This document shows positions 26,099-48,746 of a stretch of 64,000 nucleotides of DNA, in pieces. The stretch is from Escherichia phage 121Q. A program made the position numbers and the translations under genes. How positions within the stretch are numbered: the stretch's first letter is position 1; each line of letters opens with the position of its first letter. The DNA is taken from the sequence record NC_025447.1; one strand, given 5' to 3'. The notes below the pieces were generated by a model. That model was not told the DNA's origin. It did no database searches and worked only from the letters and a program-made list of their open reading frames with translations.

Positions 26099-26527
26099 AT
26101 GAATATCGAACAAACTATCCGTGAACATTCTTTCTTCGCTCCAGAAACTGGTCGTGTTATTGAGAGCGTCAAAATCGAAGAACTAATGGTCAATGTTAAA
26201 TACAAAGAACCAAATGATGAGATTAGCAGTACTTTTTGTGCTCTACGTGCACCATTCCGTAATGAAAAAGCTAAGAAACCAGCATATGTTCTTGCCATTG
26301 CACTGGGTTGTGTTGTAAAACTTGCAGTTGATGAAAATCTTCTGAATATTAAAGTTGCACCAAGCAATGACGATGAAAACATTGATTTGAACTTTGATGG
26401 TTCTCTTGATGAAGATGTATTTTTCCAACAGTCACTTGTTTACGACTTCCGTACAGTGACACATTCTCACATCAAGTTCATTAATGAAATGGTTGAGATT
26501 GTTGCTGAATACGAAGAATCTCTCTAA
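26099..26527 (+). CDS. EE-x-FFQ-x-S motif family protein (member 1)
   Basis: C-proximal DEDVFFQQSLVYD. Confidence 0.6.
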   Translation: MNIEQTIREHSFFAPETGRVIESVKIEELMVNVKYKEPNDEISSTFCALRAPFRNEKAKKPAYVLAIALGCVVKLAVDENLLNIKVAPSNDDENIDLNFDGSLDEDVFFQQSLVYDFRTVTHSHIKFINEMVEIVAEYEESL

Positions 26528-26539
26528 GTAAATACAAAA

Positions 26540-26560
26540 GCCTCCATTATGGAGGCTTTT
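26540..26560 (+). terminator. intrinsic terminator
   Basis: GCCTCCATTATGGAGGC hairpin followed by TTTT. Confidence 0.6.
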
Positions 26561-26580
26561 ATCACATAAGGAAATGAAAT

Positions 26581-27132
26581 ATGATAGACCAAATTAAAAT
26601 CCTTACAAAGCAAATCACTGATTTTCTTTCTGATAAAGATGGATTTAATACAGAAGTAAAAATGCACGGTGTTAGTGTTGATGTAATTGCACCAAATGGT
26701 AATGTAACAAGTTACGACATGTATGAATTACTTCTTTATACTCTAGCAGTACGTAAACTAGGTAGTGATATTGAACTCAATATCAATACTGATGAAAGTG
26801 GGAATAAAATTTTTGCAATCAACACCAGTGCTAAATTCGATATCAGTACTGAAATTAAAAAAATAAATGAAAGTTTTATTGGCTTTAAGCATGAATCAAT
26901 TCAAAGTGTTTTTATTGGAAAGCAAACTTCTAATAGTGAATGCCCATATTGTGTAATGACTTTATATAAAGATGGAAACTGGATGCGTCAAGATTTAGTA
27001 TTTGCTGAACTTCTGTATGCATTTACACATGAACTTAAAATCGAATTGGACGATAGTGTTTATTGCTTTAAGAAAATTCGAAATATAACTAAAGATATAC
27101 AAACCCAACTTAAAGAATTAAATGATAAATAA
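26581..27132 (+). CDS. hypothetical protein
   Basis: 183-aa ORF. Confidence 0.55.
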   Translation: MIDQIKILTKQITDFLSDKDGFNTEVKMHGVSVDVIAPNGNVTSYDMYELLLYTLAVRKLGSDIELNINTDESGNKIFAINTSAKFDISTEIKKINESFIGFKHESIQSVFIGKQTSNSECPYCVMTLYKDGNWMRQDLVFAELLYAFTHELKIELDDSVYCFKKIRNITKDIQTQLKELNDK

Positions 27133-27248
27133 ATATACCAGAAATGGTTAACATATCATGTTACTTTCCTCCCTTACATAATAATGATGCGTTATTATAT
27201 TTTCATTTTGTTCTTATTCCCCTTTTGGTACAAAATCATTTTAGTACT

Positions 27249-27271
27249 GCCCCGATCTTCGGGGCATTTTT
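27249..27271 (+). terminator. intrinsic terminator
   Basis: GCCCCGATCTTCGGGGC hairpin followed by ATTTTT. Confidence 0.6.
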
Positions 27272-27292
27272 CTTATCTAAAATTGAGGATAT

Positions 27293-27688
27293 ATGAAGAA
27301 CAATATTGGAACTTCAATAATTAAACCACTTTCTTATTACCTTGAAAAATTTAGAAGCACAAATGGTAATAAATTTAATAATATATTTCAGTTCTCTCAT
27401 AAAGAATATATTACAATTGATCATTTTTCAAAGAAACTAATGTATGTAAATGATAATAGTCATATTATTAAATTATCATTCGATATTGAGTTAGATAAAT
27501 TAACATTTACGGAATACATTAATCAAAAAACTTCTTTTTTATGTCAATACAATAGGAAAGTATATAGTAATATTTCTATGTATCTAAATGATGAATATCA
27601 CTTTCAACAATCTACAATAGAAGAAGTATTGTTCAGTACTGAAGAATTAAAAGAACTATATTACTGGTATAATTATTTCACATCTTGA
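27293..27688 (+). CDS. EE-x-FFQ-x-S motif family protein (member 2)
   Basis: DEYHFQQSTIEE. Confidence 0.55.
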   Translation: MKNNIGTSIIKPLSYYLEKFRSTNGNKFNNIFQFSHKEYITIDHFSKKLMYVNDNSHIIKLSFDIELDKLTFTEYINQKTSFLCQYNRKVYSNISMYLNDEYHFQQSTIEEVLFSTEELKELYYWYNYFTS

Positions 27689-27743
27689 CATTATTGTGGG
27701 TTTATCCTACAATATATGATGATGCTGCATTGAGGATAAATTT

Positions 27744-46429: not shown

Positions 46430-46787
46430 TCTAATAGTACGTATAATGCAAGATGTTTGTAATAACCTTTATACAGGCAATTTTGACGATCCGAACATAA
46501 AAATATTATGTTATGATGGTTTTACAATGGTACATCCAGCCTATTCAAATAATATCTACGTAGCATATACAGGTGAAAATCTATTGTATCAATTTGATAT
46601 ATATAGTACAATGACAAAGATAATTTTGGATGCATCTAAACCAGCAATCTTTATTGCTTCTCATGATTACCATTACACGGAAGAATCACTATTTCAGTAC
46701 TCAATGATTAATGACATTGGTGGGTTGACATTGGATGAGGTTAATGCTATACTAGCTGTCTCACGTTTGGTTAAAACCCACAATTAG
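46422..46787 (+). CDS. EE-x-FFQ-x-S motif family protein (member 17)
   Basis: EESLFQYSMINDIGGLTLDEVNAI. Confidence 0.6.
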   Translation: MTSLIVRIMQDVCNNLYTGNFDDPNIKILCYDGFTMVHPAYSNNIYVAYTGENLLYQFDIYSTMTKIILDASKPAIFIASHDYHYTEESLFQYSMINDIGGLTLDEVNAILAVSRLVKTHN

Positions 46788-46796
46788 GAGATTCAT

Positions 46797-46988
46797 ATGT
46801 TCTGGAATTTATTATGCTTGTTTGGTCGCACATTAGTACTTGCAATTATTCATACACCTGGCATTCGTAATTATGTTTCTTATGAATTTAAGAAAGATTA
46901 TCACAACGGTACTGAAGTACGTGCCACTAAAATGTGCAAAGACTTCAATGTATCCGTTCCTCCATTTAAGAAGTACGAGGATGAATAA
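46797..46988 (+). CDS. hypothetical small protein
   Basis: 63-aa ORF with GGAG RBS, hydrophobic N-terminus. Confidence 0.45.
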   Translation: MFWNLLCLFGRTLVLAIIHTPGIRNYVSYEFKKDYHNGTEVRATKMCKDFNVSVPPFKKYEDE

Positions 46989-47272
46989 TGGAATTCATTG
47001 TTGCACCTGATGAACTTAAAACATTCACGTTCAGAGATAATAATAATTATCCTTATACAAATCATTCATTGAATTCATTACATGTTATTTCAATCATTGC
47101 ATCTGAATATAGAGATAATCCATGTATTGATTTTAAAACCACTGATGGTGAATATACATGGGTGATCCCAAAAGATAAATATAGTTATCAAGGGGCAGTA
47201 GATATTCGTGACTCGATTCTAAAACAAATCGAAGATGGAAATACTCATCCTAAACTAAAAACTCAGTACTGA
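46988..47272 (+). CDS. hypothetical protein
   Basis: 94-aa ORF. Confidence 0.5.
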   Translation: MEFIVAPDELKTFTFRDNNNYPYTNHSLNSLHVISIIASEYRDNPCIDFKTTDGEYTWVIPKDKYSYQGAVDIRDSILKQIEDGNTHPKLKTQY

Positions 47273-47285
47273 AATCGTTTAACCC

Positions 47286-47340
47286 GATAGCTTCTAGTCA
47301 GTACTGATTCCTCCTTATGTATAGAAGCTATCACTTTTTA
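47286..47340 (+). terminator. intrinsic terminator
   Basis: 11-bp stem GATAGCTTCTA...TAGAAGCTATC followed by ACTTTTTTA. Confidence 0.55.
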
Positions 47341-47505
47341 CGTATAATGATATTACCCTCAAATTCATTATATTCGTTACCCTCTAACAGTATCTTTTTA
47401 TTCCTCTTGGATGCTGTAATTTAGAAGTTGACATTTTAACTTCTTATATGTTATACTTAAGGCTGATTCAATGAATCGGCCTTTTTTCTTATATAGGTGA
47501 ATGCA

Positions 47506-47925
47506 ATGAGTTATTTGTTTACTTTAATTGATAAGTATGTTGACATTGTATACCGTCAAGTTTGTAGTGATACGTTTGAAACAAAAAACCCAATTAGAGA
47601 TGGAATTTTTGATGTTGCCGTTGGATCATTTTTGAATGGGTACACCGAGTCATTATACAACAGTAATAATATTTTTATTTCAGTTCAATCAAGGCATACA
47701 TCAGACTATGCTGTTAGCATTGATATTTGGGAAAATAATATAGAAATAGACATAACGGAACATACTAACATTTGTGTTGATGATACATTTAATCAATTAA
47801 CTGAAGAAATGTACTTGCAGTTGAATTTTGTACATGATCTTACAAATATCAGTTATGATACATTAAGGAAAATATGTTTTCTTAGTGGGGTGATTCGTAG
47901 TAATATGAGTAAGTATGGGAAGTGA
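47506..47925 (+). CDS. EE-x-FFQ-x-S motif family protein (member 18, divergent)
   Basis: TEEMYLQLNFVHDLTNISYDTLRKI; first ATG at 47506 (track start 47497 is GTG). Confidence 0.5.
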   Translation: MSYLFTLIDKYVDIVYRQVCSDTFETKNPIRDGIFDVAVGSFLNGYTESLYNSNNIFISVQSRHTSDYAVSIDIWENNIEIDITEHTNICVDDTFNQLTEEMYLQLNFVHDLTNISYDTLRKICFLSGVIRSNMSKYGK

Positions 47926-48343
47926 AATGTTAAAAATTCCACCTAAGTCGTTAACACATCTTATTGAATGTGGTGTAATATTTTCCGAAGGTGATACCTC
48001 ATCATACACATCGGTCGATGAACCTTATAATTTTTCATACCAATCTTATAAAAATAATTCTAAAATTTCTTGTAGAGAGGCTGAAAACATATTAATAGAT
48101 GTTTCGTTACATAATGTTCCGAAATTTTACATTGATATCTTTGGTGATTCTTTGACAATTCGAACATATGATTATTTTATTAACAAAGACCTCTTGAATC
48201 TTCCAATTGAACATGATAGTATAGATTCAGAACTTTTCTTTCAACTATCAACTGTTTATGATTTACAGGGTTTAACTGTTGAACAGTTGAATGGTATTTT
48301 TGAGATTTCACGAAACATACGAAGCAGGAACACAAATGTCTAA
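47915..48343 (+). CDS. EE-x-FFQ-x-S motif family protein (member 19)
   Basis: DSELFFQLSTVYDLQGLTVEQLNGI. Confidence 0.6.
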   Translation: MGSEMLKIPPKSLTHLIECGVIFSEGDTSSYTSVDEPYNFSYQSYKNNSKISCREAENILIDVSLHNVPKFYIDIFGDSLTIRTYDYFINKDLLNLPIEHDSIDSELFFQLSTVYDLQGLTVEQLNGIFEISRNIRSRNTNV

Positions 48344-48746
48344 TATTTTAAATGAAAAAACAGTTGATGTTGCTATTGGCGTTCTTAACACCGCAACTTC
48401 ATTTCAGAAGAAACACAGTGTTGTATACTTTGGTGAAGATTGTTGGCTGAACTATACTAATAATTCGTTTATAATTCGTGTAGAGGCTGATGATATTGGA
48501 TTAACCGTTCAGGTAGGATATACCAAAACTGGTAAACAAATCACTGTCATTGTCGATAAACTTACGTCTTCTTTTTATGATAGTATAAATGATTGTGAAC
48601 ACTATAGTTCAACATTTTATGATACCGAAGAAGAACATTTTATGGATAGTACTGTTAAAGAGTTAGCTATTCCATATAATCTAATGAAAGCCGTGAGTGA
48701 TTTAATTTTAAAATATAAAAAAATAGGAGTTACTAATGCAATTTAA
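48335..48746 (+). CDS. EE-x-FFQ-x-S motif family protein (member 20, divergent)
   Basis: EEEHFMDSTVKEL; start placed at ATG 48335 (MSNILNEK) overlapping upstream stop; track ORF 48291. Confidence 0.5.

Follow-up and report, generated by a model that had tools for sequence, protein, structure and literature searches.

A clade-specific family of about 59 small paralogous proteins sharing a conserved helix in jumbo coliphage 121Q

On the evidence of their sequences, 21 open reading frames (ORFs) in a 64,000-nucleotide stretch of Escherichia phage 121Q (NC_025447.1; the whole stretch is called the window below) are one true paralogous protein family, which is previously undescribed and has about 59 members in the genome, or about 9% of the phage genes. 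This multigene family is old and confined to the RaK2-like clade within the jumbo phages. That its members are diversified early binding proteins, combining a helical scaffold with a fast-diverging sheet and acting in host takeover or anti-defence, is in our judgement an evenly balanced proposition. The window is 99.6% identical to CRJP21, and the phage is an Asteriusvirus jumbo coliphage. In 350-kb coliphages of this group, about 83% of genes lack a known function (PMC7247149). The present family unites some one in eleven genes, so far labelled 'hypothetical' and distributed over at least 16 PHROGs, under one defined (predicted) fold and a simple diagnostic motif.

Family members and their detection

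A regular expression for the motif retrieved 18 window members, from which a seed HMM was built. This HMM added 39037–39540, 43057–43428 and 47497–47925 (E 3e-5 to 2e-3), the best decoy ORF reaching only E 0.12. In leave-one-out tests, 18 of the 21 ORFs were recovered at rank 1 with E < 1e-3; the exceptions were 43057 (rank 1 at E 0.01) and the marginal 38040 and 39537. Across the whole genome, the iterated motif HMM detected 47 members at E ≤ 1e-3 and about 54 at E ≤ 0.01, and the union of HMM and regular expression comprised 59. None of 2,684 shuffled and reversed decoys passed, excluding the concern that the motif is a chance match in acidic low-complexity sequence. The sequence-only reading, which had proposed a family of at least 21 ORFs in tandem arrays with one distal copy, was therefore borne out in membership and location, and the D-x-G-x-T-x-E-x-[LI] block that follows the motif is real as well. 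Its estimate of scale held within the window and fell about threefold short of the true size, as about 36 further members lie outside, at genome positions 26–55 kb, where they form the larger of the two arrays. Members are 117–172 aa long in the window, taking the ATG at 31868 as start, and 103–223 aa in the whole genome.

All 21 ORFs lie on the plus strand. The tract 26099–29825 holds seven. The first, 26099..26527 (142 aa; DEDVFFQQSLVYD; HMM E 7.9e-25; leave-one-out E 1.2e-7, rank 1), encodes a product with 48% identity to its positional ortholog in RaK2. It is followed by 27293..27688 (131 aa; NDEYHFQQSTIEE; leave-one-out E 4.3e-6, rank 1), 27744..28154 (136 aa; TSESLFQRSLVDDLGGITFEDI; 1.1e-8), 28156..28560 (134 aa; TEESFFMASTINDFGSVTFEYY; 1.2e-9), 28562..28939 (125 aa; SEEELFQLSLIEK; 1.6e-6), 28936..29391 (151 aa from ATG; TEEGFFQQSLIREIGVSYDEL; 5.5e-9) and 29385..29825 (146 aa; TEESLFQLSTVIDAPSLEDI; 4.2e-8). 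The match of phrog_30841 to 28936..29391 begins at residue 3 of the GTG-start ORF. Three members occupy 31868–33658: 31868..32383 (171 aa; SEEEFFQRSTIIDMKDFTYESL; leave-one-out E 7.1e-6), which has a longer C-terminal tail and is matched by phrog_38573 over residues 1–171, 32380..32835 (151 aa; NDEYVFQQSTVHDVG; 1.5e-4, rank 1) and 33215..33658 (147 aa; LEEMYFQQLTVQE; 3.6e-6).

The tract 38040–39941 contains three members, among them the least certain ones. The marginal 38040..38432 (130 aa; SEEDEFQKNTTLN) ranked second in the leave-one-out test at E 0.2 and reached E 7e-7 with the iterated HMM; it pairs with 43057 (BLASTP E 5e-4). Methionine replaces the motif glutamine in 39037..39540 (167 aa; TEEERFMLSTINP; non-seed HMM E 3e-5; leave-one-out E 1.9e-5). 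The weakest member, 39537..39941 (134 aa), was missed by leave-one-out and found by the iterated HMM at E 3.3e-5, and it carries two motif-like segments, TDEAYRFRCTLYP and VEEEFQYNLLYP. Two members lie in 42246–43428, namely 42246..42599 (117 aa; TEEEYFQMSTVQE; leave-one-out E 5.3e-9) and 43057..43428 (123 aa; DEEDEFQKRTVYE; non-seed HMM E 1.7e-3; iterated HMM E 3e-7). The five in 45986–48746 are 45986..46429 (147 aa; TEEKFFQYCLLNDLRGLTFEDI; leave-one-out E 2.4e-9) and 46422..46787 (121 aa; TEESLFQYSMINDIGGLTLDEV; 1.2e-10), the products of which align across more than 100 aa, 47497..47925 (142 aa; TEEMYLQLNFVHDLTNISYDTL; non-seed HMM E 5.5e-5; leave-one-out E 6.1e-7), 47915..48343 (142 aa; DSELFFQLSTVYDLQGLTVEQL; 3.6e-9) and 48291..48746 (151 aa; TEEEHFMDSTVKE; 9.8e-7), the last again with methionine in place of glutamine. 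The distal member, 62848..63366 (172 aa; TEENVFQQSLIHN; leave-one-out E 4.1e-5, rank 1), is the counterpart of phAPEC6 gp054c.

The motif had not been recognised from any characterised family, and searches agree with this. Pfam gave no significant match for the 10 window and 10 left-cluster members scanned, NCBIfam and PADLOC matched none of the 21 window members, and the PDB sequence profile search returned nothing under E 0.037. Twenty members tested against PHROGs fell to 16 different best PHROGs, all of 'unknown function', with weak cross-hits only. A single HMM annotates hundreds of proteins in Asteriusvirus, Alcyoneusvirus, Mimasvirus and metagenomes, and the unknown portion of RaK2-like jumbo phage genomes becomes tractable.

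Predicted fold and the conserved helix

AlphaFold models of two distantly related members (pLDDT 87 and 82, pTM 0.79) agree on the architecture: one alpha+beta domain in which an N-terminal antiparallel beta-meander of 5–7 strands is followed by a helix-turn-helix. In model 1 (28156..28560; pLDDT 87), seven strands precede helix 93–102, which is the motif, and helix 110–130; in model 2 the motif is helix 71–79. The RaK2 ortholog, taken from BFVD, superposes at TM 0.88. In both models the consensus T-E-E-x-Phi-F-Q-x-S-[TL]-[IV]-x-D-x-G corresponds to the first helix and its turn, and the block is predicted at pLDDT 87–96. T/S-E-E looks like a helix N-cap, with Phi-F and [TL]-[IV] as hydrophobic anchors, and D-x-G is, in the models, the turn leading into helix 2. 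Glutamine and serine are nearly invariant. Homology between the N-terminal parts alone was undetectable in leave-one-out HMM tests, and hhalign linked two subfamilies at 96% probability through a 35-column helical module only. A variable N-terminal domain joined to a constant C-terminal module, as had been suggested, is hence an apt description of the sequences but not of the structure, where the motif is an integral helix of one compact domain.

The same models bear on the suggestion that the motif is a cleavage site like those of TEV NIa and picornaviral 3C proteases, with which it shares the linear pattern E-x-x-[YFL]-F-Q, so that a cut would free or inactivate the C-terminal tail. TEV protease recognises E-x-x-Y-x-Q with Ser or Gly in the P1' position, and the family fits at P6 (Glu), P3 (Tyr/Phe/Leu), P2 (Phe) and P1 (Gln). 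Nevertheless, we regard cleavage as very improbable. The idea is unsupported because the motif is a confidently predicted, ordered helix buried within a compact domain and not a disordered linker. Moreover, P1' varies between Gln, Tyr, Leu, Glu and other residues, the conserved serine being at P2', and 4 of 47 members have Met instead of Gln. Neither of the two candidates examined points to a PA-clan protease in 121Q: the annotated 'metallopeptidase' adjoining the arrays is an exoribonuclease-like protein, and the S1 peptidase of a Vibrio phage, the sole one encountered in the clade, has no homolog in the 121Q genome. That Vibrio phage in turn held no family member where its genome was examined.

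Two known folds were compared with the family. Proteins of the p32/gC1qBP/Mam33 group, acidic proteins of the mitochondrial matrix, comprise seven consecutive antiparallel strands and two C-terminal helices and form a doughnut-shaped homotrimer; the MAM33 profile gave no match in the Pfam scans of 10 window and 10 left-cluster members. Polo-box domains (PLK1/2/4, Cdc5, ZYG-1) align over 63–92 residues at 8–17% identity, a topological resemblance only. These domains are defined by a beta6-alpha fold, occurrence as tandem pairs C-terminal to a kinase and phosphopeptide binding; the phage family has neither the kinase context nor the tandem pairing, and membership was rejected.

Conservation and divergence among phages

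Conservation acts at the protein level and does not reflect recent duplication, as had been read from synonymous differences in the motif. Its codons are mixed (Phe TTT 26, TTC 20; Gln CAG 22, CAA 21), and the conserved serine draws on both codon families (AGY 24, TCN 14). Nucleotide similarity was found in only 18 of 1,711 member pairs, several of them physical overlaps of adjacent ORFs, and among window members in no pair save one such overlap. These results, together with the decoys and a block that forms a defined helix in two models, refute the view that the block is a nucleotide-level element (a regulatory or recombination site), or a product of gene conversion or chance acidic low-complexity similarity; only the repetition itself speaks for it, and we accord it next to no probability. 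The dN/dS of members against phAPEC6 is 0.25, indicating purifying selection and therefore that the member genes are functional.

The arrays keep their collinearity across genera, as seen against RaK2 and phage A4, and members also occur in GAP32, XaC1 and one metagenomic relative. Median identity to RaK2 is 30% for members versus 55% for their neighbours, and to A4 52% versus 75%. The sub-array 27293–29825 stands at 25–46% identity and its flanks at 70–95%; such hypervariable sub-arrays mark the copies most likely under host-driven pressure.

Expression context, proposed role and related systems

Thirteen sigma70 matches of at least 11/12 occur in the window, every one on the plus strand, and two stand directly upstream of members: 27685–27713 before 27744..28154 and 42187–42214 before 42246..42599, both 11/12. 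The earlier remark that several copies follow consensus early promoters is supported in part by these two, but the total of weaker matches in the window is no higher than in shuffles. Near-consensus sigma70 promoters are strongly biased in strand (123 on plus versus 15 on minus) and occur in the window arrays. Late-type, T4-like TATAAATA sites are absent from the plus strand in the array bins, and two minus-strand sites lie at genome positions 270–290 kb. For the equivalent region of phage CBB, early expression and host takeover were inferred by its authors (PMC5259590).

Members are soluble, with no transmembrane segments, and acidic, with a median pI of 4.72 and net charge of -9, compared with 5.65 and -3 in other proteins of equal size from the genome (p = 2e-7). 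Mass spectrometry identified 62 proteins in phAPEC6 virions, and these do not include the mapped orthologs (gp054c, members within gp081c–gp134c, gp290c, gp291c and gp318c, the left array being mapped by position only). This absence weighs against the members being packaged and injected, like the internal proteins of T4 or the inner-body paralogs of phiKZ, with the block as a capsid-targeting or processing signal. Paralogous inner-body families are indeed carried by phiKZ-like phages, and phAPEC6 possesses an inner-body rod of unassigned components (PMC7247149). However, the arrays have sigma70-type promoters and lack plus-strand late motifs, and the conserved block forms a helix within the chain instead of a propeptide at the N-terminus, leaving packaging highly unlikely.

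The members are probably early host-interaction proteins. A role in host takeover or anti-defence is plausible, because early-type promoters, absence from the virion, acidity and fast divergence all fit it. Host sigma70 RNA polymerase would transcribe the densely packed arrays, in which translation is probably coupled, at an early or middle stage of infection, and the proteins would remain in the infected cell, outside the virion. The weakest steps follow: the helical hairpin may be a constant fold scaffold, or a common docking or oligomerisation surface, and the rapidly diverging beta-sheet may bear copy-specific binding surfaces. The family would then form a set of diversified binding proteins, or of acidic decoys, against different host or defence proteins.

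Alternatively, the conserved helix may itself be the functional site, docking or oligomerising with one common partner, while the variable sheet recruits cargo as in an adaptor library. We hold this to be unlikely, though worth consideration; the partner could be, for example, a hub protein of the host, some phage factor or, in mixed oligomers, other family members. T/S-E-E, Phi-F, [TL][IV] and D-x-G are all residues of the kind that classically cap helices or pack cores, so a purely structural constraint could account for much of the conservation. Somewhat less likely still is the fuller proposal that the invariant helix is a universal docking handle and the about 59 paralogs an adaptor/decoy repertoire, each sheet capturing its own host or defence protein, which the helix would deliver or sequester via one partner or mixed oligomers. 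If true, a jumbo phage would be devoting about 9% of its genome to a combinatorial host-takeover and anti-defence system. The conserved helix is an obvious target for mutagenesis.

If the preferred reading of a diversified binder repertoire is true, the family would be the bacterial-virus equivalent of multigene families in large eukaryotic DNA viruses (MGF360/505 of ASFV, the ankyrin and Bcl-2-like families of poxviruses), which likewise are tandem, diverged, non-structural paralogs on a shared scaffold that evolve faster than core genes. Those families are tied to host range and immune evasion. Neither their sequences nor their folds are related to the phage family, and their role in host interaction is demonstrated whereas that of the 121Q proteins is only inferred.

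With 47–59 diverged tandem paralogs in two arrays that are kept in related phages, the family represents a lineage-specific expansion. It resembles the expansions of other jumbo phages, Bacillus phage G and RaK2, in consisting of dozens of small tandem paralogs without functional annotation. The RaK2 genome paper mentions an unspecified 'nearly 10% paralogues' (PMC3622015), and its authors evidently saw part of the family redundancy. In Bacillus phage G, a zinc-ribbon family of roughly 35 copies was called 'unprecedented' (Iyer et al., 2021, PMC7824862). Neither paper defines the present family, its motif or its fold; the 121Q family is alpha+beta and, at about 59 copies, exceeds the phage G expansion.

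Family membership and genome-wide copy number

A sequence-only reading had placed 21 ORFs encoding small paralogous proteins with an E/D-E-x-[FLY]-F-Q-x-S-[TL]-[IV] motif in the window, and all of them are present at those positions. A loose regular expression recovered 18 members on the + strand plus one unrelated match, and an HMM built from these 18 added those starting at 39037, 47497 and 43057 (E 3e-5 to 2e-3; best unrelated ORF, E 0.12). In leave-one-out tests of each member against 333 other window ORFs, 18 of the 21 ranked first at E < 1e-3 and 43057 ranked first at E 0.01, while 38040 and 39537 were marginal. 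The members 38040 and 43057 form a pair of their own, with EEDEFQK in common (BLASTP E 5e-4). In the weakest member, 39537-39941, a motif-like segment occurs twice, as TDEAYRFRCTLYP and as VEEEFQYNLLYP, some 30 residues apart; the helix may have been duplicated internally. In pairwise BLAST comparisons most of the similarity falls within 30-40 residues round the motif, alignments of about 100 residues being found only among 45986, 46422, 47915 and 28156, and neither BLAST nor leave-one-out HMMs detected similarity among the N-terminal parts alone. At the level of sequence, therefore, the earlier reading was right to describe a conserved C-proximal block joined to divergent N-terminal parts.

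The whole genome was assembled from Escherichia phage vB_EcoM_CRJP21 (CRJP21; 99.6% identity to the window) and the window, with about 2.4 kb duplicated at the join, where no family member lies. A 32-column motif HMM iterated over all genome ORFs, to which shuffled and reversed decoys had been added, detected 47 ORFs at E ≤ 1e-3 and about 54 at E ≤ 0.01; none of the 2,684 decoys passed, so the motif does not consist of chance matches. The union of HMM and strict regular expression comprises 59 of about 657 genes (9%). A left array, larger than the window set, begins just within the terminal repeat boundary and occupies genome 26-55 kb, where about 36 of 56 consecutive genes carry the motif; singleton members lie at about 105, 121, 121.6 and 347 kb. 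By these counts, the family is real and about three times bigger than was visible from the window. In the CRJP21 record (OQ708376.1), product names look several genes out of register with the coordinates: the clamp-loader ORF is named 'putative peptidase | TelA-like protein', the label 'putative modification methylase' sits on a family member, and a 309-bp gene bears the name 'tail sheath monomer'.

Conservation of the motif and divergence of the family

For the 47 genome members the consensus motif reads [T/S]-E-E-x-[L/Y/F]-F-Q-x-S-[T/L]-[V/I]-x-D, and x-G-x-T-x-E-x-[LI] often follows it. The Phe occurs in 46 of 47 members (TTT 26, TTC 20), the Gln in 43 (CAG 22, CAA 21), the other four having Met, and the two Glu in 37 and 41, encoded mostly by GAA. 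The Ser, found in 38 of 47, draws on both of the unconnected Ser codon families (AGY 24, TCN 14), and only 18 of 1,711 gene pairs show nucleotide similarity. In several of these 18 pairs the ORFs are neighbours that physically overlap; the others belong to the left array, mostly to a group of five tandem copies at genome 36834-39158. Mixed Ser codons and scarce nucleotide similarity indicate that conservation acts on the protein and that the duplications are old, as the sequence-only reading had proposed, and on the same grounds a nucleotide element was rejected. The five tandem copies, outside the window on the CRJP21 record (L001 36834-39158; SEEYYFQQSTVYDDEVLE..WYFK), are still 70-93% identical at the nucleotide level along parts of the genes and are the family's only clear sign of relatively recent duplication.

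Searches of Pfam, NCBIfam, PADLOC and PDB sequence profiles gave no match, so that the search for a known domain suggested earlier ended without any characterised family. The 20 members tested against PHROGs fall in 16 groups, every one of unknown function, and a BFVD fold search returned only uncharacterised RaK2-clade proteins, with the RaK2 ortholog H6X3Z4 superposing at TM 0.88. A full-length profile run against 5.8 billion proteins found only 33 'hypothetical' relatives, all of the same clade, since the signal of the profile is diluted by N-terminal regions that align poorly. Nothing describing the family turned up in literature searches, whether on the clade, on paralogs or on the motif strings themselves. 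The paper on phage CBB gives 22 paralogous ORFs (PMC5259590), and the jumbo-phage survey of Iyer et al., which does not mention the family, called a zinc-ribbon expansion of about 35 copies in phage G 'unprecedented' (PMC7824862). Lineage-specific expansion in giant phages is thus a known kind of phenomenon, but neither this family nor its fold, diagnostic helix or copy number seems to have been described.

The window's relatives G17, Sharanji, phAPEC6 and PBECO4 (97-99% identity to it) are, like CRJP21, jumbo myoviruses with genomes of about 350-370 kb; they belong to the genus Asteriusvirus, within the RaK2-like clade. Arrays collinear with those of the window, and with the motif intact, are present in Klebsiella phage RaK2 and in the divergent coliphage A4, where 40 kb contain 13 and 18 members, respectively. 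The distribution check proposed earlier also found 10 members in 8.9 kb of a metagenomic contig (L011), five in 49 kb of Cronobacter phage GAP32, and one solid and three marginal members, with Gln drifting to Asn, in 49 kb of Xanthomonas phage XaC1; 49 kb of Vibrio phage 2.275.O yielded none. Judged from this distribution and collinearity, the family is ancestral to the enterobacterial RaK2-like clade, and its expansion is older than the split between Asteriusvirus and Alcyoneusvirus. Median identity is 30% for members against 55% for neighbours in RaK2, and 52% against 75% in A4, so members diverge faster than neighbours. Divergence is concentrated in the six-member sub-array 27293-29825, which has only 25-46% identity to A4 between flanks of 70-95% (26581-27132, 70%; 29840-30100, 95%); either accelerated divergence or allele replacement could explain it. 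In comparison with phAPEC6, 19 members have a dN/dS of 0.25 and 64 neighbours one of 0.17, so the members are functional genes under somewhat weaker constraint than their neighbours.

Predicted fold and the motif helix

A profile of one subfamily matched 101 clusters (50% identity representatives) in 1.84 billion proteins, many at full length, and the resulting alignment was used for an AlphaFold2 model of 28156-28560 (pLDDT 87, pTM 0.79). This model has seven antiparallel strands (residues 13-87) and helices at 93-102 and 110-130; the motif, here TEESFFMAST, forms the first helix, and D-x-G-x-T supplies the turn and caps the N-terminus of the second. The other model, of a distant 'short' member from the left array (L001:35741-36112), was built on 49 sequences (pLDDT 82, pTM 0.79) and follows the same plan, with five strands, the motif helix at 71-79, a helix at 88-103 and one additional C-terminal strand. 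Both models thus predict a common alpha+beta domain with the motif as its first helix. Comparison of the two subfamilies by hhalign gave 96.4% probability (E 1.3e-9) over only 35 columns of the helical hairpin. From the shared plan and the hairpin-only match, the family is predicted to be one compact domain, in which the hairpin is conserved and the sheet has diverged past sequence recognition. The variable N-domain and constant C-module of the earlier reading consequently hold at the sequence level and fail as a separable module on a linker, since the models show one domain. In a metagenomic relative of 199 aa (P0130), the domain is fused to an N-terminal hydrophobic segment, probably membrane-spanning; the family in this genome is soluble.

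The hairpin may serve as a constant scaffold or shared handle, and the fast-evolving sheet might then provide copy-specific binding surfaces. On this reading, the preferred one, the family would be a set of binders or acidic decoys that has diversified to engage host or defence proteins. The principal alternative takes the helix itself as the functional site, a docking or oligomerisation surface common to the members, and is kept because conservation of helix 1 is unusually dense. Variation within helix 1 occurs at i, i+4 and i+8, and this helical periodicity implies a single narrow exposed stripe, the other faces probably being constrained. The resemblance to a TEV/3C-like cleavage site, raised earlier, was abandoned: the motif is a predicted helix, its Gln is replaced by Met in the four members already counted, and the two candidate proteases considered were discounted. 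An S1 peptidase annotated in the Vibrio relative has no homolog here, and that phage is without the family in the region examined; the gene at 20131-20820, named 'putative metallopeptidase' (T5p085-like) in relatives, has a Pfam Rv2179c-like 3'-5' exoribonuclease domain (E 1.5e-8), and its A4 counterpart is annotated as an exoribonuclease.

Protein properties, expression and genomic setting

Members have a median pI of 4.72 and net charge of -9, compared with 5.65 and -3 for 228 other genome proteins of 100-210 aa (Mann-Whitney p = 2e-7), and no convincing transmembrane segments. Their phAPEC6 counterparts are gp054c and genes within gp081c-gp134c for the window members and gp290c, gp291c and gp318c for the singletons. 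None of these mapped members is among the 62 phAPEC6 virion proteins detected by mass spectrometry (PMC7247149), and the left array corresponds by position to the gp347-gp549 interval, which is without virion proteins. The reading as packaged proteins was rejected on this proteome. Small virion proteins such as gp306c and gp270c were compared with the singletons, which are other genes. An inner-body rod measuring about 91 x 18 nm is present in the phAPEC6 virion (PMC7247149). The family is a very large and ancient one, conserved at the protein level, of small, acidic, soluble, non-virion proteins.

The window has a GC content of about 32% and almost all its genes on the + strand, with replication genes (topoisomerase II subunit, clamp loader, TelA) upstream. 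Over the whole genome, 123 sites on the + strand and 15 on the - strand come close to the sigma70 promoter consensus (at least 11 of 12 matches). Such promoters are common in the window arrays, and two lie directly upstream of members, in partial agreement with the earlier remark on early-type promoters. The T4-type late motif TATAAATA is absent from the + strand in the array bins; two - strand sites occur at genome 270-290 kb. Family genes would be expressed early or middle by host RNA polymerase, and the authors of the CBB study inferred an early, host-takeover role for the equivalent region from its short hypothetical genes, RpoD-like promoters and a phage sigma factor (PMC5259590). Genes abut or overlap by 1-14 nt, which suggests translational coupling. 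Three perfect TTGACA-N17/18-TATAAT promoters lie within 2.5 kb between arrays (34131-34159, 35991-36020 and 36538-36566), and the window is rich in terminator-like hairpins, with 17 found where 5.8 would be expected.

A C-5 cytosine DNA methylase gene lies between two family arrays (30483-31343; Pfam E 5e-38), and the same methylase and a PTH2 peptidyl-tRNA hydrolase are syntenic with arrays in RaK2, GAP32, XaC1 and the metagenomic contig, where both keep the RaK2-like arrangement. Six tRNA genes (Gly-TCC, Ser-TGA, Ser-ACT, Met, Asn and Thr) are scattered among the arrays at 40682-45969; the tRNA-Ser at 43464-43555 has the unusual anticodon ACT. AGT is the most frequent codon for the conserved family Ser (19 of 38).
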